Source: a virus
Taxonomy: Duplodnaviria; Heunggongvirae; Uroviricota; Caudoviricetes
Direction: 5' to 3' (one strand)
DNA: 64,000 nt
IMG/VR virus record: IMGVR_UViG_2695420859_000012
The notes under the pieces are model-generated. The model was given only the letters and a program-made list of their open reading frames with translations, made no database searches and was not told the DNA's origin. Positions 1,691-55,757 of the stretch are shown here, piece after piece; position 1 is the stretch's first letter; each line of letters starts with the position of its first letter. A program made the position numbers and the translations under genes.

Positions 1691-4030
1691 TTAATCTTCT
1701 AATTCATCTGTCGGTGATGTCTTCTCGCGCCTGTCATCTATTGCCTGTAACGCAGCAATGATTTCAGCTAATGGCTTCTCCCGGTACATCTCGACGATCT
1801 GTGATTTGGTGTATTTCTTCTCGCCAATTTCCACACGCCCGCTGGCGCTCTTGGGCAGGTATCCTTCCTCCAGCATGTATTCAACCAGAGACTCGACGAC
1901 GTCCAGCCCGCGAGTCGGGTCGAAGTAGAATTTCCATGAGCATTTGCCAAACGGAGGCGCGACTTTGTTTTTAATGCACTCGGCGCCAACGTCCTGTCCG
2001 ATCTTCTCTTTGCCATCCTTCATGACGGATGCACCCAGACGGATGCGCACCGACGCGTAGAACTTCGGAGAGTCGCCACCCGGAGACGTAGTCGGATCGC
2101 CAAACATCACACCAATTTTGGTACGCACCTGGTTCAAGAAGATGATGCACGCGTTGTACTTACGCGCCCAAAGCGCCAGAGTAGGGAAGTTCGCACTTGT
2201 CGCGCGCGCCAGCGCCGTGTTGTCGTTCATGTTCAGCTGATCTTTGTCTTTCGCAGTGCCTTCTGCCATCTTGTCGAACTTCTCAGCCTTCGAGTTCGGA
2301 ACCATCGACGCCAGAGAGTCGGCTACGATGCAGATAGGGGCTGTTTCCGGAATAAGCTCTTCGTCGCGCACCAGCTTGAGGATTGTGCCGATCAGCTCTA
2401 CGGAGTCTTCGAAGGTATCCGGCTGTTTGTAGACCCACTGACCGTCATCCTCATCTGCGTTCAGGCCATTGGCTACAGCCAGGCCAACGTCAAAACTGTT
2501 TTCATGATCGAGGAATACCGCCAGACCATCTTGTTTTTGAGCGGAGATCATCGCTGCTGTTGCAAGGAATGTGTTGTGGCTGATAATCCCGTTAGACCAG
2601 AAAGAGTGTGTTTCCGGCATCGCTACGTCGAACGTTGGTGCTTCACCTTCCTCAATAGCCACGACTTCGTCGTAGAACAAGTTAGAGCCAATTACCGCTG
2701 CCAGTTGTGCAAACAGATGCTCGTTAAAACGATTCTTTCTGCCAATGAAGGAGACATAGATTTCTCGCAGTTTGTCTATTCCGACACGATCGCCGCGGCC
2801 AATAACGTGGTCTACCAGAGCGTAGTCTTCACGGGTGGTCTTGGTGAGCGACTCGTAGAGTGATTTCACTAAGCCGCTGATGTGCGGAACATAGCCTGAG
2901 TAAGTGCGGTCAAAACCAATGTCCCGTTTGGTTGCCACTGATAAACGTGCCGGAGATTCGAAACCAATCGTTGACAGAAAAAGGTCGTAATTAGAGCCAC
3001 TGAATGACAGCCGGTAATATGTATTTTCATAACCCGCGACGTGTTTTTCAGAGATAGTTGACGTAATCCCCAGATTCAGGAGCATGAGGCGAATTTGCTG
3101 TAGCAGCAGCCCACTCGCGCTCACAACCTCAATGCAGCGACCATCATTGACGTGGCATTCCAGCTCAAAGTAGCCGCGAAGGAATGCAATTTGAGCCTCG
3201 CTATTGGCGCGACGCACACTCAACGGAACCTGCTTGCCAGCAGCTTTCTCATACTCCAGACCATATTCTTTAAAAAGCAGCGAACGCACCTCTTTGCTAA
3301 ACAGCACATGGTCTTCCGAGCCGTTATGTTTTCTCGTAACTGGCATCTTGTCTGATACCAGCGAAATGAGGCGGTAGTACTCATCCTTGATGAAAGGATC
3401 TGTGTTAGAAAAATTCACTGAATTTTCAGAGGCGACGTATCCGTCAGCAATTAAATAGCCCATCAGTTTTGCGATATTGGCATCCAGGTGCTGATCGCCG
3501 AATTGATGTGTGCCAACCATTGAAGGAATCGTGTCGCCTACACTGATTTTTTCAGCATGTCGCCAGACGACATTACCTAAGTCGTCAACCACACGGATTG
3601 GGTGACGGAACGTAGCCTCGATATAACCGCCTGATGCCAGCTTAATACGCTTGAATTTGCGACGGTTGTTCCATGTCAGGTGTGAGGTCTTCTCTATCAC
3701 GCCATTTTCATTGATGAGTCCAACGTTATGCTCTACATCGCGAGTAGTGCATGTCGCTTTGTACCCTTCAATCTCAAACAACTCTTTCACTGTTACCATT
3801 CCACGCTCCGTCAGCAGCATGGTGTCTGCGGTAACACATTTCCCTGCACTTGGAGGACCGAATACTTCGACGATACGACCACATGGGAAGCCGCCATCGT
3901 AACGACCAGAAATAGCTTTGTTTAACGGTGGAAAGCCTGTATCAATCCAATGAGTTACTTTCTGAATTTCGTCGTTGCTACCGATTTTCTTTTTCAGAGC
4001 AAGTGCCAGTGCGGATTTTCCTTTTGCCAT
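1691..4030 (-). CDS. recA: RecA-family recombinase interrupted by an intein in the Walker A P-loop
   Basis: N-extein ends GRIVEVFGPPSAGK, C-extein resumes TFLATAAM... and contains IIFLNQVRTKIGVMFGDPTTSPGGDSPKFYASVRIRL, closely matching bacterial RecA as recalled; exteins total 357 aa. Confidence 0.85.
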   Translation of the reverse strand: MAKGKSALALALKKKIGSNDEIQKVTHWIDTGFPPLNKAISGRYDGGFPCGRIVEVFGPPSAGKCVTADTMLLTERGMVTVKELFEIEGYKATCTTRDVEHNVGLINENGVIEKTSHLTWNNRRKFKRIKLASGGYIEATFRHPIRVVDDLGNVVWRHAEKISVGDTIPSMVGTHQFGDQHLDANIAKLMGYLIADGYVASENSVNFSNTDPFIKDEYYRLISLVSDKMPVTRKHNGSEDHVLFSKEVRSLLFKEYGLEYEKAAGKQVPLSVRRANSEAQIAFLRGYFELECHVNDGRCIEVVSASGLLLQQIRLMLLNLGITSTISEKHVAGYENTYYRLSFSGSNYDLFLSTIGFESPARLSVATKRDIGFDRTYSGYVPHISGLVKSLYESLTKTTREDYALVDHVIGRGDRVGIDKLREIYVSFIGRKNRFNEHLFAQLAAVIGSNLFYDEVVAIEEGEAPTFDVAMPETHSFWSNGIISHNTFLATAAMISAQKQDGLAVFLDHENSFDVGLAVANGLNADEDDGQWVYKQPDTFEDSVELIGTILKLVRDEELIPETAPICIVADSLASMVPNSKAEKFDKMAEGTAKDKDQLNMNDNTALARATSANFPTLALWARKYNACIIFLNQVRTKIGVMFGDPTTSPGGDSPKFYASVRIRLGASVMKDGKEKIGQDVGAECIKNKVAPPFGKCSWKFYFDPTRGLDVVESLVEYMLEEGYLPKSASGRVEIGEKKYTKSQIVEMYREKPLAEIIAALQAIDDRREKTSPTDELED
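2573..3838 (-). mobile_element. Intein (about 422 aa) with LAGLIDADG homing-endonuclease domain, inside the recA P-loop
   Basis: Begins with Cys immediately after GPPSAGK and ends ...IISHN followed by Thr; LAGLIDADG-type blocks LMGYLIADGYV and FLRGYFELECHVNDG. Confidence 0.8.
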
Positions 4031-6449: not shown

Positions 6450-6905
6450 TCAACGGGGAGTAATAAAGCGTTCAGAGCCTAATCGCTCTAATTCAACGAT
6501 GGCCATCTTTGACGCCTGAACGATCATGTCTCGGCGATGCGAAAAGGCGGCGACAGCATGTTTGTATATGTCTGCGATGTGCCGTGCTTCATCCAACTTC
6601 TGCCTTTTAGACAGATACTGTGGGTTTGTTTTAACCTTAGCGTCCAGTACAGATTCGTTGAACTTAATGCCGTTCATACTCAAGTTCTTACGCTCTGTGT
6701 CGTATAGCTTTGCTTCAACAGCTTCAAGGTTAAGTTTTGCCTCTGCGACACTTCTTTCTGCATGAGCGAGTTTTGAGCCATACTCCATTAAAAGGCGGGG
6801 TTGTCTACGCCAGACTTCCTCCAGATTGTCTCGGTCAAACTCGAGATCAGACATTATTTTCTCGTAAATATCGGCGATCATGCACATTTCCTTATCACTT
6901 ATCAT
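6450..6905 (-). CDS. Hypothetical protein (position suggests a replication/recombination accessory)
   Basis: 151-aa ORF between SSB and DnaE genes. Confidence 0.4.
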   Translation of the reverse strand: MISDKEMCMIADIYEKIMSDLEFDRDNLEEVWRRQPRLLMEYGSKLAHAERSVAEAKLNLEAVEAKLYDTERKNLSMNGIKFNESVLDAKVKTNPQYLSKRQKLDEARHIADIYKHAVAAFSHRRDMIVQASKMAIVELERLGSERFITPR

Positions 6906-7007
6906 TTTGTATTGATTATATCATTGTAATGATGAGGCAATGAGCTTGAAGATAGGGGGGGTGAGGGGATAAGGGAAAACATGGCCTTTATGGCCATGTT
7001 TATTGGA

Positions 7008-8177
7008 TCACGTCTTAATAGTTTCTGCTACGTCGGCTAATATCGCTTCTAGTCGTTCTCCCTCTTCAGGTCTGAAGTAAAGAATGTTGGGGTTAAACCC
7101 GTAAAAGACAGTAACGTCAAGGTCTGGAAGATACTCCTTCCTGCCGACCAAATCGGATGGCTTGTTTTTGTTGTTAAACAATGAAGTTGCCCGGCTGCCA
7201 CACGTCAGCACATAGGTCGGACGCACCAGATTGATCTCTTCACGCATAAAGTCGGTGAACTGGCCGATCTCGTCTTTGGTGTAGTCTTTTTCTTTGTCTT
7301 TAACCTTCTTGCAAACACCTGTGACATAGAGATCGCCCATGCGTAAATCTCCAGCCGTCAATAGCTTGGCCTTAAAGTCGTCGTATCCGTTCTCCATAAA
7401 GTAACCGGTTCGAGCATCATTGCCGTTCGCATTGTCCAGAATGATCATGATTTTCGGCTTAATACCAATGCTGGGGCGGATTAGTTCATCACCTAAGCCC
7501 ATTTCAGCCGCCATCCGCGTCATGAGTACGTTAATTTCAGCCGAACGTTTGGGGTTCATCTCAAACGGACGTGAGGCTTTAACTGCGTCTATGACAAGGT
7601 TTCCCATCAATTCAGCCTGGTCGCGTAGGCGCTCTGGATCAGTTGCTGGCAGACTGCCTGGCTCGATGGATGCAAACGCCCCTACTTTTTGCAGCGATTC
7701 GCGCACTCGACTATTACAGGCACGTTTCTCGACAGCTTCTTCGAATTGCGCCAGTGACTCGAATTTGCCGCCAACTTTTTCTCGCGCTCTCATGATGGCT
7801 TGGCAGCCATTCTCAGAACACCCCTTCACAGCAGAGAAGGGCGCATACAGCACCTGGCTGCCATCTTCAAGCGTGCGGATCTCGATTCGGTTAGATGACA
7901 CGTTAACGTCTGGTGGCAATACGCGAATGCCATAGGTCAGCGCATCTTTAACCAGCCCCTGGTGTTTATCTTCGCCAAGAATAGTGAGAGCAGCAGCGAA
8001 AAACTCTGCGGGATAATGAGTTTTCAACCACATAGATTGATAACTGATTAAGGAGTAAGCAACAGAGTGTGATTTGTTGAAGGCATACGCGCCGGATTTC
8101 TCAAACATATTCCAGATTTCTTCGGCTCGTTCGTGCGTCAGGCCATTGCTCTCTTCGACAACACCGGTAATTTTCAT
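7008..8177 (-). CDS. dnaE: DNA polymerase III alpha (DnaE-type), C-terminal fragment
   Basis: ERAEEIWNMFEKSGAYAFNKSHSVAYSLISYQSMWLKTHYPAEFFAA matches the DnaE finger region as recalled; GAGG 7 nt before the ATG, which overlaps the HNH stop (ATGA). Confidence 0.8.
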   Translation of the reverse strand: MKITGVVEESNGLTHERAEEIWNMFEKSGAYAFNKSHSVAYSLISYQSMWLKTHYPAEFFAAALTILGEDKHQGLVKDALTYGIRVLPPDVNVSSNRIEIRTLEDGSQVLYAPFSAVKGCSENGCQAIMRAREKVGGKFESLAQFEEAVEKRACNSRVRESLQKVGAFASIEPGSLPATDPERLRDQAELMGNLVIDAVKASRPFEMNPKRSAEINVLMTRMAAEMGLGDELIRPSIGIKPKIMIILDNANGNDARTGYFMENGYDDFKAKLLTAGDLRMGDLYVTGVCKKVKDKEKDYTKDEIGQFTDFMREEINLVRPTYVLTCGSRATSLFNNKNKPSDLVGRKEYLPDLDVTVFYGFNPNILYFRPEEGERLEAILADVAETIKT

Positions 8178-8908
8178 GCAGTCACCTCATCAATCTTCAC
8201 GAACTCATACCCATTGGAGGCCAGCCAGTTCCGTTGGCGCTCCCAGCTCCATATCTCTTCACGCATTTCACTATGCAGGCGAATGTGGGCGTCTTCTGGA
8301 AGTGCTACAAGATTCCCAGGGGCGTTATCTATCGTATCGCGGTTAATATGGTGGACATGTTCATCGTCACGTAGCTCCCGACCGAGACGTTCTTTCGCTA
8401 TCAATCGATGAACGTATTCGTATTGCGAAACGCCATTGTTACCAACCAGCTGCATCATGTAGCCGTTGGTTTTTACGATGATGCCACCTTTGTAGTTGTT
8501 CGCTTCTTCTCCGATCTTTCCGCGTTTGGCAGCCGCCAGCTTTTCCTTCGTCTCCGCGCGGATTGTTCTGCCGGTTAGCTTTTTCGAAACGGTGGCCACT
8601 CGCTCATCGATATCAGCACGCAGACCGGCATTCCACGAGGTTTTCCCATACATAGGGTTGCCAGTGCCAGTCCGGGCTTCGGAGAGACGCTTCATACGTT
8701 CGTCATTATTTTTGTTTTTGCCACGATTCCAGGCTGGGGTAGCGGAGATCCGCGCGCTTCCGCGCCTGATCCCCCATTTGGCTAATAAGCGGTCAATATT
8801 TGCCTTGCTGCAACCAGCTTCGGCGGCAATGTCTTCTTTTCTCATCAGGTCAACCATGTAACGCTGACGTAACCATTCTTCTGTGATTTTGTACTTCGTA
8901 CTCGGCAT
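8174..8908 (-). CDS. HNH homing endonuclease inserted within dnaE
   Basis: HNH motif EHVHHINRDTIDNAPGNLVALPEDAH; separate frame and start. Confidence 0.8.
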   Translation of the reverse strand: MPSTKYKITEEWLRQRYMVDLMRKEDIAAEAGCSKANIDRLLAKWGIRRGSARISATPAWNRGKNKNNDERMKRLSEARTGTGNPMYGKTSWNAGLRADIDERVATVSKKLTGRTIRAETKEKLAAAKRGKIGEEANNYKGGIIVKTNGYMMQLVGNNGVSQYEYVHRLIAKERLGRELRDDEHVHHINRDTIDNAPGNLVALPEDAHIRLHSEMREEIWSWERQRNWLASNGYEFVKIDEVTA

Positions 8909-8956
8909 TTCTAAGACTCACTAAACAAATTGTTTTCTTATCTTATAAATTAATTC

Positions 8957-11320
8957 TCAAATATCGAAGCTCGTTATGTCGGCATTTATTGCCATTGCTT
9001 CGGCATAAGTGCGACGCTCACCATCAGCACAAAGTAGGCGTGCTGCTTTATGGATTTTTCTCGTAGAACCATCATCCAGTGACACTGTCACCCAGCCTTC
9101 CTCCGCTCGCTTAATGAAGTCGCCGCCAATGGATTTCATTTTCTCCATATCTTTTTTCCCGATCGCTTTCCTGACCGAGTCTGCTTCCGCCATTGAGAAC
9201 CCCGCCAAGATTCGCGTAGCAGCCATGATCTGTTCCTGATAAATCAGAACTCCGTTTGTGTCGCGAGAGATGTCGTCCAGCATTGGGTGTAAGGAATGTG
9301 GGGCCATGAAGCCTTTGGCCACGGACACATAATCGTCCAACATGCCGGATTGAATCGGGCCAGGTCGGAAGAGCGCAGTTGTAGCGACGACCGTTTTAAA
9401 GCTCATTGGCTCAATTCCACCACCTAAATCTTTAAGCAGCTTGCGCATTGGGCCTGATTCAAGCTGGAATACGCCCTGTGTATACCCTGCAGCAAAACCA
9501 TCCAGCACCTTGCGATCTTCAAGAGAAATGGCATCAAGATTGATATCTTCACCTGTGTTCTCTTTTATGTAGCGTTTTGCACTATCGAGCAAATCGAGAG
9601 TTGCCAGGCCAAGCACGTCCAGCTTAATTAGGCCCATAGCCTCGCAGTAACGCTTGTCAAATGCGATACAACGCGCGTCACCACGGCGTTCAACCGGTGT
9701 ACGTTCTGTCAGAGGAACACCTGCTACGATCATCCCTGCCGCATGTCTACCAAAGCCACGCATAAGGCTTTGTAACTTGCAGGCTGCATTGAATGCATCA
9801 GGATATTTTGTTGCGTATTTGTCGAGACTTGCCAGTTGTTCGCGCAGCTCTTCCAATGGAAGGCTATCATCCTCGACGTTCTTCAGTTCTTTTGATACCG
9901 CCATATCTGCGGACTCCACACCATAAATACGAGCGGTGTCACGTAGTGCAGAGGCTGCGCCCAGGTAGGTGAAGTTCGGAATGCCTGCAACGTAATCTTC
10001 GCCGTAGCGTTCATTCAGATACTCGATCACCTCATGGCGACGTGCCTGGCTGAAGTCCAAGTCCGCATCCGGCAAGTCGAGACGCTCAGGGTTGATGAAA
10101 CGCTCAAACAGAAGACCGTGACGGATTGGGTCGACGTTGGTTATGCCTATGCACCACGCCACCAGAGAACCGGCAGAGGAACCACGACCAGGCCCGACAG
10201 GAATGCCAGTTTCACGGCTGTGATTCATCAGATCGCGTACCATCAGGAAGTAACCACAAAATCCCAGGCGAGTAAGCGTGTCCATTTCGTACTTAAGTCG
10301 CTCAACATAAACCCTGTTCTCAGAAGCAGGTGGTGTGTATCCAAACTCTTTTGTGGTAAGACGTTTACGCAGCCCTGCAACAGCCAGTTTCATCAGCGTT
10401 GCAGGTTCGTCGTCTGCCATCTTGGGCAGTGCTGGTGGCAATTCATGCCAGCGCCATGTGCAGGCATCGATAATGGAGTCCTGCGTTGTTGAGGCCATTG
10501 CAGCTGTTACCGGCACATCCATGCGAACGGAGAAGGCTTTAAGCGCCTCAAGGAGATGGCGACGACCATTGATGGCGTTATCTCGCTGGTGGGGGATACG
10601 CAGACGATGCGGCTGGTCGATTTTTATGTTGTTCGTAACCATGTGCGCAATGTCTTTAATGTCTGCATCGTCGATCGATTCGTAATAAGCGGGATAGAAC
10701 GCTACTGGCTCTATTTTCAGTGCGCTGGCGACTTTCATCGCCCGGACGTTAATCTGGTCGTAGAATGGGGTAGGGTGCGGATAAACCACACTATAGAAGT
10801 TGTCTTTTCCACCCGCTGTAATCAGTGTGCTTATGATTTTTGCAAAATCGTTGCGTTGGAACACGCTACCGATGTCGGAAGTAAGCAGGATGATGTTGCC
10901 TTTGGCATATGTAGAAACCAACTGTTCGAGCGAGAGACGCGGTACAAAGTAGAACTGTTCTCGTGTGTTGGCCGCCGTCATTAGTTCGCAGATGTCGCGA
11001 TATCCTTTCTCATTTTTAATTAGAGCGGTAAACGAGTAGTTACGTCCTCGCTCTAATGATTCCATACATCTCATAGATTCTTTAGCAAGTTTAGCCCGGT
11101 GCTCGTATGTGGGATCATCAACAATGTTTAGTTTCACACCACAAATAACCGCCATGTCGTCACCAGCGGCACGTTGTAGTGGAATAACGCTCGCAATATT
11201 CATGCTATCTGCTGAAATTACAGCGGTGTAGCCAGCTTCTCTGGCAATCTTCACCGCGTTTTCTGCTTTTAGAGCCGACTCCCCAAGTGAGAAGTCAGTT
11301 CGAACCATCAGTGCCTTCAT
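8957..11320 (-). CDS. dnaE: DNA polymerase III alpha (DnaE-type), N-terminal part
   Basis: GYFLMVRDLMNHSRETGIPVGPGRGSSAGSLVAWCIGITNVDPIRHGLLFERFINPERLDLPDADLDF matches the DnaE catalytic core as recalled; ORF stops 44 codons after the point where similarity to uninterrupted DnaE ends. Confidence 0.85.
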   Translation of the reverse strand: MKALMVRTDFSLGESALKAENAVKIAREAGYTAVISADSMNIASVIPLQRAAGDDMAVICGVKLNIVDDPTYEHRAKLAKESMRCMESLERGRNYSFTALIKNEKGYRDICELMTAANTREQFYFVPRLSLEQLVSTYAKGNIILLTSDIGSVFQRNDFAKIISTLITAGGKDNFYSVVYPHPTPFYDQINVRAMKVASALKIEPVAFYPAYYESIDDADIKDIAHMVTNNIKIDQPHRLRIPHQRDNAINGRRHLLEALKAFSVRMDVPVTAAMASTTQDSIIDACTWRWHELPPALPKMADDEPATLMKLAVAGLRKRLTTKEFGYTPPASENRVYVERLKYEMDTLTRLGFCGYFLMVRDLMNHSRETGIPVGPGRGSSAGSLVAWCIGITNVDPIRHGLLFERFINPERLDLPDADLDFSQARRHEVIEYLNERYGEDYVAGIPNFTYLGAASALRDTARIYGVESADMAVSKELKNVEDDSLPLEELREQLASLDKYATKYPDAFNAACKLQSLMRGFGRHAAGMIVAGVPLTERTPVERRGDARCIAFDKRYCEAMGLIKLDVLGLATLDLLDSAKRYIKENTGEDINLDAISLEDRKVLDGFAAGYTQGVFQLESGPMRKLLKDLGGGIEPMSFKTVVATTALFRPGPIQSGMLDDYVSVAKGFMAPHSLHPMLDDISRDTNGVLIYQEQIMAATRILAGFSMAEADSVRKAIGKKDMEKMKSIGGDFIKRAEEGWVTVSLDDGSTRKIHKAARLLCADGERRTYAEAMAINADITSFDI

Positions 11321-11498
11321 GTGTTTTTACCTTTCTGGTTTTTTTGATTTTGTCATTGGGGAAGCCTACGAACTTCCCATGCATCGAAATCGCAACTTCT
11401 TTTGCTGATTGGTGACAATCGGGCTTGTCTGGACACACCAGACAAGCCTTACCTGTTTCAGAAGCAGCGATAAGAGAGCCGAAACATCCTTTACGCAC
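11295..11498 (-). CDS. Small Cys-rich hypothetical protein
   Basis: 67 aa with CLVCPDKPDC; overlaps dnaE start by 26 bp. Confidence 0.3.
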   Translation of the reverse strand: MRKGCFGSLIAASETGKACLVCPDKPDCHQSAKEVAISMHGKFVGFPNDKIKKTRKVKTHEGTDGSN

Positions 11499-11500
11499 GA

Positions 11501-12736
11501 TTAACCAAATATTTTTTGAACAACTTCACGAGCCGCTTGTGCAGAAGCTGAAGGGAGTTTGTTAATGAAAGAACGCTCAATACCTGTCACAAAGTCGCCT
11601 CGCATCATTCCAATCTTGGCTGACAACAAAAGTTCACGAGGGCCAATTGGCTGACTAATAAGGTGTTCTTCGTATCCATCGCGAACGATACCGGCAAACT
11701 TAACCATCTTTTCAGCGTATTCATCCACGATGCCTGCATTTGTCAACATGTTGATCTCTGCGTCTTTGCTCATGTATTTCACATTCGAAACGATGCCAAA
11801 ACGCGAAAAGTTCGCGGCGTTCTGGATGTTTGTACCCTGGTACAAGCCGGTTTCATCACCAGATCCGTTCGTGTTGCCAGTGCCAATGAAAGCAAACCGT
11901 TCATGCGGAGTAATGCGACGCCATTCTGGAGTTGCCTCTTTGATGACCAACGCTTCACCTTCCAGCACTGGCTGATACACGCCAAGAATTTGTGGAAACG
12001 CAAAGTCGTATTCATCCGCGAGGTAAACCCAGCCATGCTTCATTGCGAGCGCAAGCAAGCCAGGTTCGAAATACGTAGAGCCATCACGCGCCAGAATTTG
12101 CCCCGTAACATGTGCCTCTTCCATTGATGCTGTATGTTGGGCACGGATCAACGGACGATTGAGCAAAGCACATAGCTGTGTAGGCAATGACGATTTGCCT
12201 GTTCCTGCATGACCCCACAAATAGCCAGGTATGCCAAGTTCAAGCATCATGAAAATATCTTTGATCAGTTCGAAGTCGCCATATACGTAGCCCTTCTTCA
12301 CTTCTGGAACGAACTCTGGATACGGCGTATTGACGTTGACGCTAACCATGAGCGGCGTCCCACGTTTTGTTCCGAGTTCTTCCACCGTTACGTTTAGCAG
12401 TTCGTGAGCTGCGACCAGATCTGTCTTGTACTCAACTGTGCCTGTGTAGCCAGGGCTACTGGTCAAGACAGAAGATTTGGCCATTTCGCTTTTTTGCTCG
12501 GCACGTTTAGCTTGAATTGCATCAAGTGCCTTTTTCGATAGCGTTGGTTCATCTGGAAACTGCGTTGTGTACATTTTCAGTACGGTGTCAGGATCGGCAT
12601 CTTTTACTGACTCAGGAATGCCCTCGCAATTACCATTGGCTACATGGGACTTAAAATAGTGAAATGATTTGCCGCACCACTTGCAAACAAGGTAATCAGA
12701 AGGATTTTTTTCATTTTGCAGTGCAGTAGTCGTCAT
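11501..12736 (-). CDS. AAA+ ATPase, MoxR/CobS-like
   Basis: Walker A GHAGTGKSS; N-terminal CxxC; adjacent to a vWA protein. Confidence 0.7.
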   Translation of the reverse strand: MTTTALQNEKNPSDYLVCKWCGKSFHYFKSHVANGNCEGIPESVKDADPDTVLKMYTTQFPDEPTLSKKALDAIQAKRAEQKSEMAKSSVLTSSPGYTGTVEYKTDLVAAHELLNVTVEELGTKRGTPLMVSVNVNTPYPEFVPEVKKGYVYGDFELIKDIFMMLELGIPGYLWGHAGTGKSSLPTQLCALLNRPLIRAQHTASMEEAHVTGQILARDGSTYFEPGLLALAMKHGWVYLADEYDFAFPQILGVYQPVLEGEALVIKEATPEWRRITPHERFAFIGTGNTNGSGDETGLYQGTNIQNAANFSRFGIVSNVKYMSKDAEINMLTNAGIVDEYAEKMVKFAGIVRDGYEEHLISQPIGPRELLLSAKIGMMRGDFVTGIERSFINKLPSASAQAAREVVQKIFG

Positions 12737-47527: not shown

Positions 47528-50500
47528 TTAGTTACGTTGAGTGTTTGGGTTGAGAGATCCGCCAGGGCGTTTCTCTTGAGCGATAGTCTCAAGCGCGATT
47601 GCTTTCATCCGTTGAGCGGCATTGTTCCATATGCTTTCTGTATCGCCGGATTCAGTTGTGCTACCGTCACTATGGACGTTGATCTCAATTGATACCGGAG
47701 AAAGAACATTTCCTCCTCCACTCATACCATCGGTACTGAGCGTTACAGGGATTGTTCGACCATCAGGCAATGGAACATACGCCTCATTCATATCGCCTTC
47801 CCCAAACAACGCCAATTGAGGTGAGTTGGCGATACCGCCTTTCTGGTATGCCCGGAGCGGGATCACGCCGTCTTTTCCGAATATGCCACCATTTGCAAAC
47901 TTCGGAATTGCAGGAATACCATTCGTGCCATCGGCAGCAGAACTGGTCAGATTGTTGAACCCGGAAGTTGAGCCAGAAGAACCGGACATCAATCCATCGA
48001 ATCCACCACCAGCCCATACTGAAACCAAACCAGATGCAACTGTCGCGCCGAAATTCAACCACTTATTACCAGAGCCGGAAGCATTAGCTCCAAGCATTGC
48101 AAACGCGGCAGACAGAGCGCCGGTAACAGAGCTGAGGTTCTGCATCGAGAAGATGGAGTCCTTCACTGCTTTTGTCTCAGCATCTTTGGCTTCGGTGCTA
48201 TCAAATAGCCCCGATACCCAGCTACCAATCGCATTTGTTGCTGTGCCAATTGCGCTGGTGGTCTGCTGTGTTGTTTGCCCCAATCCAGTTACCGAACTGG
48301 ACGTCTCCTTCGTGGCTTCTCCTACCGACTTGTCGCCATTAACAGTGTTGCCCATTCGTACACCTTGATTGGCAACGGCAGAAGCAACTCCAGTGAGCAA
48401 ATTGCCACTCTGTGAACTACCAGCTGCGGTGGTTCCCATCCCCAACATGTTCATTAGAGGCAGCGTGATTTGCGACTTCACGACCATATTGGTGATATCT
48501 TTCAAAATGGACTGAGATAGGCTGGAGAAGCTCATCTTCCCGTTAATAACGAAATCAGTCAGGACATCAGTTAAGCCACTAAACAAATCAGTCCAGGTGC
48601 TTTCGATCTGCTCTGCCAAGTTTTCGTATTCCAGTGCCAACTTCTGCGTCGCAGTCCCCGTCTCTTTAATAAGCGCGGTATTGCCAGCAGCAATCAGTTG
48701 ATTGATTTTCTTTGTATAAAGCGCCACAACTTTAGGATCAGACGCCTTATCACGAAGTTCTATCAACGCTTTGAGATTGCGGTTGTAGGTGTCTTCGAAA
48801 TCGGCAACTTTCTCTTCGCGAGACGGCGTATAGCCAGCACTAATAATGGAATCCGCCTCCGGTGCCCAAGTGGAGATCATCTGCTCAACATTGCGGCGAT
48901 TAAACATCTCACGATATTCAGGTGTCGCATTTTTGAGGTCTTCAAGACGTTTTTTCGCCTTGTCGATCATCTCTTGAGTGATGAACTCGTTAGGAACCGC
49001 ATTAGCCAAATCTGTCAGCGATTTCGTTGTATCGCGAAGAGACTGATCAAACGATACCGTAGCCTTAGAGCTTTCACCCATTTGCCCCATAAGCTGATCG
49101 GCTTTGTCCAGAGCCTTCTGGTATCCGGCTGCCAGTTTCTGTTGCGCTGCCTGTTCCTTCTTGGCCGCACGCTGCGAGGCGTTAGCTGATCGTTGGGCTG
49201 CTTTCTCGGCAGCTGCTGCATCCTGTTCACGAGCTTTAGTTAGTGCAGCAATGGCTGCGGCACGCTCTTCATCGCTCATTTTCTCCAGAGAGCTGGCGCT
49301 GGATGCTTTCTGCAAATTAAGCTGCGTCTTGAGTTGTTTAGGCCCAATAATCGGCTTACCTTCGAAGTCCATCATCGGAGTGCCGTCAGGCAAAGTACGC
49401 TGATAAGTCGCAGAATCCATCTGGTTTCGCATATATTGCGCCAACGCCTTCTGAGCAGCTTTATCAGTTGTACCTAACCCAAGAACAGTCCCCTGGTTTG
49501 ACATTACGCCCTTACCAGTTTTGGCCGCGTTATCTCTCTCGAACTCTGCCTGAGTAAGTTCCTGAGCAACGGCTTCCAAATGCTCCTGATAACCACGAAT
49601 ACTGCCTTGCAGTTTCTGGATTTGCTCGGTATTGCCATCCTTTTTGGCTTTTTCAAGCTGATCATTAAGAGTCGCGATTTGCTTCTCGGTCGCATTCTTA
49701 CGAGAAGAAAGTGAATCAACCAGTTTTTGCGCAGGCTCCAGATAGCTTTTGTTTACCGTTTCACGTAACGGTGCCAATAGCTTGTTCTTTTCGTCATCTG
49801 AAAGTGAACCGTCATCATTGATTTTCTGGATCTTATCCAGAGCCTCCTGCCGGGCTTTCACGAATGTTGCCGCGAAAATCTGGTTTTCCGCTCGAATTTT
49901 CTCAATCTGAGATTCGGCAGCCTCTTTAGCCAAACGCTTTGCTACAGCGCCGTCACCAAGAGCTATCGTGCCGGTTATCTTTTGATACTCTTCCTGATTT
50001 TTTTTCAGGCGTGCTTCGATGTCAGCCTTCGACTCTTTGTGAGTAATAACACCGGCAGAGTTAGATACGTAATTAACACCCTCACCAGTTTTTAATGCTC
50101 GTTGATCAGCAAGAATCTGCTTTTCGAGCTTTTCTGCGCGGTCGGCCATTTGTGCACGTTTGGCCGCCGTCATCGCCTCTGGTATTTTCCTAATCTCGTC
50201 AACGACCTTTGAAGTTTCGCTGCGGAGCATGGTCATGTACGTGATTAGGCCAGCAACAGCTACAGTGGCAACTGTAAATGCTGCCCCTATAGGGTTTGCT
50301 GCAATGAACGCCGTTAATCCAGCAAAAGCGCCTTTAAGCCCCGTAATCGCCCCACGGATGGCGAAAATAAGAGAGGGGATCGGAGCCAGCCCCATACGTG
50401 CCGCACGATTGAATCGGGTTACTGCTGTAGCGCCGAGGTTAAATGGAGTCTGTATGGCGGTCGCCATCGTGGCAAAGGTGCTAACCATCTGGCTGCCTGC

Positions 50501-54157: not shown

Positions 54158-54509
54158 TTGGTGGGTTTGTCACGTTCTTCATTCGAGAAAGATAACCGAG
54201 TCGGTATTTACCCAGCTCCATGTACTTAGCATAGTCACCTACTTCTACGCCCGGATGCCCCTGACGTGGTTTTGCTCCAGACACAGAAAGCTCAATACGC
54301 AGCCCTGAATAACCTTCTTTAATCACCCTGGCAAAGATGGCTGTCTCCAGAGATCCGGTTTCCAGCGGGGCCATTGCACGGCTGAGGCGCTCAACCAAAC
54401 GCGCCAGCTTTTCCATGTCCCGAATAAGATATCGCTTAAATGCTTTCTGGCTGTTGTTGAGTCTATTCCCCGCACGTTTGAACTGATGCGCATCGTATTT
54501 CAGACCCAT
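54036..54509 (-). CDS. Head-tail joining protein (by position)
   Basis: 157 aa in head-tail connector cluster. Confidence 0.4.
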   Translation of the reverse strand: MGLKYDAHQFKRAGNRLNNSQKAFKRYLIRDMEKLARLVERLSRAMAPLETGSLETAIFARVIKEGYSGLRIELSVSGAKPRQGHPGVEVGDYAKYMELGKYRLGYLSRMKNVTNPPIAGVKPRVGPHFLERAVEISEKQFSEAILEAARKAGFTRG

Positions 54510-54940
54510 ATATTCGCCCCTACTTCAAGATGCCCAGGTCTTCCTCGTAGCCCCCAGCGGCGATGAACACTGGACACCTTTAATTTTTGACCTTCAAGGA
54601 TCAGTACATCATCAAGTTGTACAGCCGCTTCTAAAGGGACAACTAACACAGCATCAAACAGCTCCAGACTCGCCTTACCACGACTACCAGAGCTATCAGC
54701 ACGAACTGACGATTTCTCATTACTCTGTTCGAACTTAACCACGCCGACATTCGTCTTCCTGACGAATTGTAATTGCGCCTCACCGTAAACGTTCTTTGCG
54801 CCAAAGCGGTAGATCGCAATTTCTGTTTGCCATGAAATATTCATGCTCTCTCCCTGTTGTTGTCGGTCGCTCTCATTACTGGCCAAAAAACCTTTCGACC
54901 AAAAGTAAATAATGCGACTGGCGTTACGCACGGCGAACAA
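54500..54940 (-). CDS. Head-tail connector protein (by position)
   Basis: 146-aa ORF. Confidence 0.4.
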   Translation of the reverse strand: MFAVRNASRIIYFWSKGFLASNESDRQQQGESMNISWQTEIAIYRFGAKNVYGEAQLQFVRKTNVGVVKFEQSNEKSSVRADSSGSRGKASLELFDAVLVVPLEAAVQLDDVLILEGQKLKVSSVHRRWGLRGRPGHLEVGANIWV

Positions 54941-55757
54941 TCATACGGTTGTTGATGTAACTGACCAGCAAGCGCCAGGTACTACGAGCCACATGCACGT
55001 TTGCAGCTTTACCGGTACGGTACATGTTGGTTGTTTCACCGATGGACTCTGACAAAATGCCATCCTCTCGTGCTGCGGCTACATCATTGCCATTTGCGAT
55101 CTCACACGCTTCGTTGACAACGGCAAGCATCAACGCTTCTTTGAAGTAGTCAGGGAACTCTTCAAACTTCTCCTGCGTCATCTTTTCCCAATCGACTAAA
55201 TCATGCCGGTACGCTCCATCTGCTTCCCACGGAATGTCATACACATTCAGCATATTTTGAGGGCGATCGTATCGGTCAAAGTCGATACGTAGAATTTTGC
55301 GGATTGAGAACGGTAAAGTTTTAATTCGTCTGGTAGCCTCAATGAGACGCTTGCGCATTAAGCCTTCACCATCCGACAGCAAAGTGTCCCCATTCAGCAT
55401 ATCGATCGCCTGCATTTGAGCATCAGCGACAGTTGCAAACGACTGTTCTGGTATCGACAGTTCAAAACTATTCAGCAGAACATACATTTGCCGCTCTTCA
55501 TGCGTCAGACCCGATGCAACAGCCTTCACAATGACGTACCGCAGATCTCGCTCTTTCTCAGAGAGCTGGTTATATTCAGCCGACACGACAACCGGAATCG
55601 ACATTTGACCGCTGGTAATTTCTAGCGGCTCGCCATCAACGAGAATAGCCCCGGTGCTGTCCTTTACTGTGTAGGTGGCAGATTCGATATCCAGCACGTT
55701 GAAGGCAAATGAAAGAGAAACAGCTTCACCGCTACGATACGAGTCGATCTGCGCCAT
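54924..55757 (-). CDS. Head completion / connector protein (by position)
   Basis: 277-aa ORF. Confidence 0.4.
   Translation of the reverse strand: MAQIDSYRSGEAVSLSFAFNVLDIESATYTVKDSTGAILVDGEPLEITSGQMSIPVVVSAEYNQLSEKERDLRYVIVKAVASGLTHEERQMYVLLNSFELSIPEQSFATVADAQMQAIDMLNGDTLLSDGEGLMRKRLIEATRRIKTLPFSIRKILRIDFDRYDRPQNMLNVYDIPWEADGAYRHDLVDWEKMTQEKFEEFPDYFKEALMLAVVNEACEIANGNDVAAAREDGILSESIGETTNMYRTGKAANVHVARSTWRLLVSYINNRMIVRRA

Follow-up and report, generated by a model that had tools for sequence, protein, structure and literature searches.

The window analyzed in this study, a stretch of 64,000 nucleotides (nt) from the Caudoviricetes record IMGVR_UViG_2695420859_000012, originates from an Escherichia coli SSU5-like phage-plasmid and carries a gene for a DnaE-type DNA polymerase that is divided by a gene for an HNH endonuclease. 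Three open reading frames (ORFs) on the minus strand form this locus, at exactly the positions an earlier sequence-only reading had given for them: the DnaE-N cistron (8957..11320, 787 amino acids (aa)), the HNH endonuclease gene (8174..8908, 244 aa), and the DnaE-C cistron (7008..8177, 389 aa). DnaE-N comprises the Pfam domains PHP, DNA_pol3_alpha (palm), and DNA_pol3_finger (most of the fingers), and DnaE-C the rest of the fingers with the FNKSHS motif, HHH_6, and a C-terminal region resembling family-4 uracil-DNA glycosylases (UDG). Based on the gene layout, conservation, selection, presence/absence polymorphism, and recombinant tract observed at this locus, we consider it very likely that the polymerase is made as two polypeptides, which would assemble non-covalently, and that the gene between their cistrons is a free-standing HNH homing gene.

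A spacer of 48 nt (8909..8956, minus strand) extends from the DnaE-N stop codon (TGA, 8959-8957) to the ATG of the HNH gene. In frame with DnaE-N, it holds two more stops (TAG and TGA), giving three stops between DnaE-N and the HNH ORF, the reading frame of which also differs from that of DnaE-C. The spacer furthermore hosts the palindrome AAACAATTTGTTT at 8935-8923 (minus strand), recurring in the spacers of endonuclease-less alleles from Buttiauxella and Klebsiella (L005 3342-3413 and L014 ~2172-2181). At the downstream junction, the DnaE-C ATG (8177-8175) overlaps the HNH TGA (8176-8174) as ATGA, and a GAGG Shine-Dalgarno sequence (8185..8188, minus strand) is located within the 3' end of the HNH ORF, 7 nt ahead of the ATG. 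The ribosome-binding site of its own (GAGG 8188-8185) and the overlapping start that had been assigned to DnaE-C from the letters were thereby confirmed. Co-transcription of the three ORFs is probable, since a scan of 6800-11700, limited to consensus sequences, revealed neither promoters nor terminators on the minus strand. Regarding a regulatory hairpin ahead of the endonuclease start, comparable to that of mobE in Aeromonas phage Aeh1, stems can be drawn, with z-scores of -1.6 to +1.7 corresponding to the level of shuffled sequence.

Two cistrons for a probable two-piece C-family polymerase

The pieces were assigned to the C-family DnaE polymerases on the basis of PF02811, PF07733, and PF17657 in DnaE-N, PF14579 in DnaE-C, and matches to NCBIfam PRK05673 and TIGR00594, and the structures of Taq and E. 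coli Pol III alpha were matched at E ~1e-116 to 1e-127. Positions 9-726 of PRK05673 are covered by DnaE-N residues 4-741 and positions 725-886 by DnaE-C residues 9-173; as these positions meet at 726/725, the canonical parts of DnaE-N and DnaE-C abut exactly. Alignment to uninterrupted DnaE homologues, a check proposed along with the sequence-only reading, showed the relatives to be continuous and the N and C pieces to cover both parts, with residues 1-782 of a continuous relative covered by DnaE-N and residues 789-1173 by DnaE-C. Uninterrupted relatives possess one gene of 1168-1172 aa, compared with 787 + 389 = 1176 aa in the window. A gene that is continuous in relatives and represented here by adjacent, co-oriented ORFs jointly covering the whole protein corresponds to the arrangement known as genes-in-pieces.

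The OB-fold/tau-binding C-terminus of bacterial DnaE is missing from the window pieces, in which no PF01336 match was found. DnaE-C residues 269-385 (7023-7373, minus strand) are family-4 UDG-like in place of this end, the match being weak (PF03167 weak; TIGR00758 at E=5e-8, under its cut-off), and the DnaE-UDG architecture defines the whole polymerase family recovered in our searches. The annotation of DnaE-C is inconsistent over identical or near-identical plasmids, where it is recorded as a pseudogene, 'helix-hairpin-helix domain-containing protein', 'uracil-DNA glycosylase', or 'DNA polymerase III subunit alpha'. The pseudogene call is given as 'missing N-terminus', with the start placed 48 nt inside the ORF.

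Comparison with the split alleles of Enterobacter, Cronobacter, and Buttiauxella revealed ratios of nonsynonymous to synonymous divergence (dN/dS) of 0.033-0.051 for DnaE-N and 0.015-0.021 for DnaE-C, at dS values of 0.66-1.66. Both halves are under purifying selection, a further property expected of genes-in-pieces. The endonuclease gene differs with a dN/dS of 0.20 at a dS of 0.15-0.32, several-fold under that of its host gene, and this far lower dS indicates a more recent horizontal spread of the endonuclease gene.

These values also bear on the possibility of an inactivated gene, raised in the sequence-only reading, in which the insertion would have killed the polymerase, leaving its halves to decay and replication to proceed via the host Pol III. 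The label 'incomplete; missing N-terminus' (pseudogene) given to the C piece by the annotation pipeline PGAP in the identical plasmid pGMI17-003_2 would agree with such a scenario. However, at dN/dS values of 0.015-0.05 neither half has acquired a frameshift or stop at dS up to 1.66, and the dN of 0.02-0.04 is far under the neutral-decay expectation even over the dS of the endonuclease gene (0.15-0.32). E. coli, Enterobacter, Cronobacter, Buttiauxella, and Klebsiella all have pieces of 787 and 389 aa, and even lineages with no more than 35-41% identity preserve the layout. With both halves under strong purifying selection over such deep divergence, inactivation is contradicted and very improbable.

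Distribution and age of the split

Identity of 100% across the region was found in E. coli plasmids such as pGMI17-003_2. The SSU5-like phage-plasmids CMS-2020a, PhiR41_1, and Cyrano, all of which have a continuous dnaE, share 95-97% identity with the region. Of 439 matching PLSDB plasmids, 25 (from E. coli, Enterobacter, and Cronobacter) contain the endonuclease cassette of the window, as do 23 of the 243 complete E. coli genomes having this dnaE region. The same 787/389 split occurs in 243 further plasmids, mostly of Klebsiella and Enterobacter, in combination with another endonuclease. This 231-aa NUMOD4-HNH protein shows a reversed domain order and resembles the window enzyme over the HNH core only (28% identity over 57 aa). 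Split alleles devoid of any endonuclease, with both ORFs intact, complete the picture. In Buttiauxella p1WJP83, a 69-nt spacer keeps the upstream spacer and the endonuclease start context, and in Klebsiella pCRKP18622-1 the pieces of 790 + 386 aa are separated by 75 nt. The empty Klebsiella spacer shares GAAAACAAnTTGTTT with the window's spacer upstream of the endonuclease gene and AATGAC..GGAAAACAC-ATG with the spacer downstream of the NUMOD4-type endonuclease.

On metagenomic contigs with DnaE pieces 35-41% identical to those of the window, the order of N piece (780-790 aa), HNH gene, and C piece (395-401 aa) is kept, the C pieces begin with MKI.. and overlap the HNH stop, and the neighbourhood of CobT/CobS ... 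gp32/5'-3' exonuclease/RecA is retained. Their endonucleases fall into the same two families, with 40-46% identity for the window family and 36% for the NUMOD4 family. When 1.84 billion representatives were searched exhaustively by HMMER with the C piece as query, 116 hits were obtained at E<=1e-30. According to our own count in the HMMER table, ~30 of the clusters (defined at 50% identity) are stand-alone C pieces of 379-412 aa starting at residue 1, and ~47 are full-length at ~1077-1172 aa, with a few longer ones in addition. Judged from these comparisons, the split is old, widespread in the polymerase family, and independent of the endonuclease found in the window.

In plasmids H135-H138 of Acinetobacter baumannii (~105-114 kb), only the C-piece part of the junction peptide is matched, and the matched gene is annotated separately as 'uracil-DNA glycosylase family protein'. 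Together, these two observations suggest the same split in Acinetobacter phage-plasmids.

The empty spacers are likewise informative with regard to a group I intron, the second option of the sequence-only reading, which would carry the endonuclease gene and self-splice to restore a continuous DnaE message. The location of the endonuclease gene between two halves of one gene would suit this explanation, and phage polymerase genes are known to host such introns (SPO1/SP82, with a nicking homing endonuclease; cited in PMC2988022). Yet the covariance search proposed for this region, performed with Rfam on 6800-11500 of both strands, revealed no intron family and thus no ribozyme core at E<=10, the only matches being noise from microRNA and snoRNA models (15-23 bits, far under the gathering scores). 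Almost no non-coding RNA is available to such an element, with 48 nt upstream of the endonuclease ORF and none downstream, and the spacer folds no better than shuffled sequence. The endonuclease-less spacers of 69-75 nt are too short for a ribozyme while both ORFs are kept. Moreover, the stop, the ribosome-binding site, and the ATG are conserved in the relatives of 35-41% identity, and the segments next to the break are conserved as protein (see below). A group I intron is contradicted by these data, and its probability is next to nil.

The endonuclease gene and its recombinant tract

In the HNH protein, a helix-turn-helix-like region at the N-terminus is followed by NUMOD3 repeats and, at the C-terminus, an HNH_3 domain, both Pfam domains scoring over their cut-offs (HNH_3, 31.9 bits vs 24.8; NUMOD3, 27.6 bits vs 20.4). 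Its HNH motif is intact (HVHHINRDTIDNAPGNL...DAHIRLH), and the pattern HVHHI..NN.P.NL..DH..LH is kept in orthologues of 40-46% identity. PHROG 21964 ('HNH endonuclease') matches over the full length, and a sequence search of the PDB gave no match at E<=1. An intact catalytic motif, a modular DNA-binding region, and an ORF of its own outside any intron or intein are the features of a free-standing homing endonuclease. Its sporadic presence among close relatives and its co-converted flanks also characterize homing endonucleases. We infer that the gene is a selfish, free-standing homing endonuclease, which would cleave alleles lacking it.

The flanks were delimited by comparison with two alleles. 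From 11320 to ~9320 and from ~7947 to 7008, the dnaE of the window is 97-100% identical to that of the uninterrupted CMS-2020a, compared with only 50-80% between ~9320 and ~7947. The stretch from ~9320 to ~8070 is instead 93-98% identical to the endonuclease-bearing allele of Enterobacter. Crossovers were located at 9323-9302 and near 7947, delimiting an imported tract of ~1.37 kb (7947..9320, strand not assigned) with the endonuclease gene, the segments beside the break, and their flanks. In addition, each of three E. coli backbones with ~95-97% similarity has a different allele of the dnaE junction segment. Such a pattern is the footprint expected of homing with co-conversion. Along with the endonuclease gene, one event brought in the DnaE-N stop codon, the ATG of DnaE-C with its ribosome-binding site, and the segments at the end of DnaE-N and the start of DnaE-C. 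The clean 1-kb insert assumed in the sequence-only reading did not hold, as ~950 bp (9078-8127) replace ~144 bp of the closest uninterrupted allele.

The HNH protein could alternatively have been domesticated and serve the polymerase or replication as a functional partner, instead of being a selfish element. It is as conserved as the polymerase pieces (40-46% vs 35-41% identity) and always found in the same slot, and its dN/dS of 0.20 represents purifying selection. On the other hand, this slot may hold the unrelated NUMOD4-HNH gene or nothing at all, and as for the endonuclease-less Klebsiella allele, its C piece is the representative of a cluster with 247 members. The HNH gene is sporadic among near-identical plasmids, its dS is several-fold under that of the flanking gene, and it lies inside the recombinant tract. 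We regard domestication as unlikely and retain a selfish homing gene as the preferred explanation.

An imperfect 21-bp repeat had been reported just before and after the insert with 16/21 matching positions. The actual match is 15/21, and its copies (9112-9092 and 8132-8112) do not abut the insert, as the first is located 133 nt before the DnaE-N stop and the second begins 45 nt after the first base of the DnaE-C ATG. Among 200 codon-shuffled pairs of 300-nt flanks, 68 contained a best 21-mer match of at least 15/21. The copies encode consecutive ordinary DnaE helices (FIKRAEEG / ERAEEIW). The repeat is spurious, and a target-site duplication was rejected on account of this chance-level match and ordinary helix coding.

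Conserved tail and head segments at the break

Two short segments outside the canonical DnaE profile border the break: the N-tail WVTVSLDDGSTRKIHKAARLLCADGERRTYAEAMAINADITSFDI (8960..9097, minus strand; DnaE-N residues 742-787) and the C-head MKITGVVE (8154..8177, minus strand; DnaE-C residues 1-8). This tail of 46 aa and head of 8 aa are conserved in all split alleles and absent from canonical unsplit members. Nearly all stand-alone C pieces start with a conserved head such as MKIKSITPLNDG, and heads of the form MK[IV].. are conserved in them across the whole family. The distant full-length or N-extended unsplit members examined all show the canonical junction without insert (e.g., ...FVDGAVKS-GMDKTRAEMLW...). 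One of these unsplit members (P0049) and a split relative show 73% DNA identity, with similarity beginning exactly after the head.

Continuous genes with the additional segment were seen only in the SSU5-type cluster. When the continuous SSU5-type proteins are compared with Pol III alpha of Thermus aquaticus (PDB 2HPI), 48 additional aa are seen in them between residues 788 and 789, and the break is situated near the end of this insert. Each continuous SSU5-type allele pairs with a particular split allele. Cyrano and the NUMOD4-type tail + head are identical at 68 of 83 positions with one 8-aa gap at the break, and SSU5 is identical to the tail + head of P0121 and P0006 at 61 of 87 positions with a 2-aa gap, keeping a Met at the C-piece start position in its continuous gene. 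Between the window and the NUMOD4-type allele, the tail + head are 57% identical compared with 87% for N and 93% for C overall, which fits each tail/head variant being linked to its endonuclease. By parsimony across the sequences compared, the tail and head probably arose with the split, or travel with it, and the continuous SSU5-type genes would be re-fusions.

After four short strands and a short helix in the tail, the AlphaFold model of a continuous-allele fragment (P0004) shows a strand corresponding to the head. The existence of continuous versions implies that the last residues of the tail should be spatially close to the first residues of the head. According to this model, both segments may form a small beta-rich module, which would help the halves to find each other.

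Extra peptide segments on both sides of a break could also be the halves of a split intein, trans-splicing the pieces as in the cyanobacterial DnaE or in the loci of Dassa et al. 2009. The order of N part, short spacer, endonuclease gene, and C part overlapping its stop is the fractured-gene layout (PMC2677866), and true split inteins are present elsewhere in the same polymerase family. Nevertheless, the three ORFs and six fused tail + head sequences gave no Pfam intein or Hint match at E<=10, whereas the genuine split inteins of relatives are readily found by PF14890. The tail starts with W-V, lacking the Cys/Ser at position 1 of an N-intein; the head lacks the terminal His-Asn of a C-intein and is followed by Gly instead of Cys/Ser/Thr. 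Tail and head (46 aa and 8-11 aa) add up to ~55 aa, well short of any known intein. The same segment also stays inside the gene in the continuous SSU5-type alleles. A split intein is very doubtful on these grounds.

Genuine C-inteins of relatives end with ...VVHN|S. One of them occurs in a relative with DnaE in three pieces (metagenome contig SRR27947036_10954; L021 3091-8290). Its piece 1 of 719 aa ends with an N-intein and is followed by an HNH_3 gene (255 aa); piece 2 of 198 aa has the C-intein (...VVHN|S) at its start and a window-type tail at its end; a short HNH gene of the window's family (166 aa) and piece 3 (398 aa, starting with MKV) conclude the arrangement. Both devices being found at different sites, a true split intein and an intein-less break coexist in one gene.

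Proposed mechanism

The interruption of dnaE is real, and among the options named in the sequence-only reading the two-piece polymerase is the supported one, strongly so by its layout, by selection, by deep conservation, and by the endonuclease-less split alleles. In the proposed mechanism, the HNH endonuclease would cut alleles without its gene, and the gene together with neighbouring sequence would be copied in during repair. The copied block would include the N-piece stop, the ribosome-binding site and ATG of the C piece, the 46-aa tail, and the 8-aa head. As this block holds stop/start signals, tail, and head, a single homing event could convert a continuous gene into a working two-gene version. 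From a transcript probably shared by the three ORFs, DnaE-C translation would probably be coupled to the termination of the endonuclease ORF via the ATGA overlap and GAGG. DnaE-N would supply PHP, palm, thumb, and the first part of the fingers, and DnaE-C the rest of the fingers, the helix-hairpin-helix, and the UDG-like region, with both associating non-covalently into an active enzyme.

More tentatively, and with somewhat less than even confidence, we propose that the mobile unit carries its own complementation tags in the form of the 46-aa tail and the 8-11-aa head, so that an essential polymerase is cut and yet assembles without RNA or protein splicing. The continuous SSU5-type genes would then be re-fused versions bearing a 48-aa scar.

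Several points weigh against the two-piece polymerase and its assembly as proposed. RefSeq marks DnaE-C as a pseudogene in some records. The order of events, with the split having made tail and head or an older loop having been split later, is judged by parsimony across the family and may have been either. The per-residue confidence score (pLDDT) of the AlphaFold model is only 55-65 in the tail/head region of the continuous allele, so a beta-sheet clasp is no more than weakly suggested. Finally, the cleavage specificity, the assembly and activity of the pieces, and the role of tail and head are matters that we infer.

Comparison with known systems

The closest parallel is nrdA of Aeromonas phage Aeh1, split by the free-standing HNH gene mobE and described as 'genes-in-pieces' (Friedrich et al. 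2007, summarised in PMC2988022). Both cases share a free-standing HNH gene lodged in a gene that is essential, related to replication, and uninterrupted in relatives, the lack of an intron or intein, two polypeptides that must reassemble, and start/stop overlaps suggesting translational coupling. Here, in contrast, a C-family polymerase is affected, and the split is ancient and not confined to one phage, extending over an entire polymerase family. The slot is furthermore shared by two endonuclease families unrelated to each other and by empty spacers, and a conserved tail and head flank the break.

A replicative polymerase in two cistrons is also found in Aeromonas phages 25 and 44RR, where the family-B polymerase gene 43 is split as 43A/43B (PMC2988022). 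One relative has a homing endonuclease between the cistrons and another only a short untranslated spacer, and the 43A/43B pieces of phage 25 co-purify and are active (PMC2988022). In both systems, the endonuclease may have made the split or invaded one already in place. They differ in that gene 43 is a family-B gene with a seg (GIY-YIG-type) endonuclease in T4-like lytic phages, whereas the present gene is DnaE-type with HNH endonucleases in temperate phage-plasmids of Enterobacteriaceae. The T4 topoisomerase genes 60/39 with mobA likewise combine a free-standing HNH-family gene at the break, a gene continuous in relatives, and separate subunits that work (PMC2988022). The enzyme is a different one, and nothing comparable to the translational bypass of T4 gene 60 was seen here.

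Fractured genes with split inteins include DnaE loci from ocean metagenomes (Dassa et al. 2009, PMC2677866). Their gene order is identical, with a short spacer before the endonuclease gene and the endonuclease stop overlapping the downstream start, and the model of an invading element supplying stop/start signals also fits the present case. There, a split intein rejoins the halves, whereas here the flanking segments are too short and contain no intein motifs. The cyanobacterial split DnaE (Ssp/Npu) concerns the same enzyme broken in the same part of the fingers. As its C half (NCBIfam PRK07373) aligns from DnaE-C residue 31, the cyanobacterial break is located ~22 canonical residues downstream of the one in the window. 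Its halves are encoded at separate loci and ligated by trans-splicing (PMC2677866), in contrast to the adjacent, intein-free cistrons of the window. Our full-text searches of the literature yielded no description of this DnaE split in SSU5-like elements, and a survey of phage-plasmids (PMC7969092) mentions neither DnaE nor HNH.

Implications

SSU5-like phage-plasmids are frequently encountered in clinical E. coli, Klebsiella, Enterobacter, and Salmonella, and ~270 public plasmids carry their replicative polymerase in two pieces. Recognition of two subunits corrects the annotation of the second piece, variously recorded as pseudogene, 'uracil-DNA glycosylase', or 'HhH protein' (helix-hairpin-helix). 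A DnaE-type enzyme is thereby added to the few known endonuclease-split genes that keep working. Canonical alleles, split alleles with endonuclease A, with endonuclease B, or with an empty slot, and re-fused alleles constitute a natural series, from which it could be learned how essential genes are broken and mended by homing elements. If tail and head do serve as assembly tags, they would represent a compact, natural, and non-covalent protein-complementation pair. Provided that the cassette brings such tags along, it would represent a third way, beside introns and inteins, to render a homing insertion harmless.

Further elements of the window and its relatives

A second homing element resides in the same replication module, ~3 kb downstream of dnaE. 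The ORF at 1691-4030 (minus strand) encodes a RecA homologue of 779 aa, into which a complete intein with a LAGLIDADG endonuclease is inserted (Pfam Intein_splicing, residues 73-486; LAGLIDADG_3, 279-356; best RecA match, 484-703), and the PGAP name for the whole protein is 'LAGLIDADG family homing endonuclease'. In plasmid record NZ_CP031136.1, which is identical across the dnaE region, an IS1A (54460-55157; L024 1201-1898) interrupts the gene of a phage tail protein, leaving two halves annotated as pseudogenes. Its site maps to ~48096-48793 of the window by coordinates alone, the IS1A itself being known from the plasmid record only.

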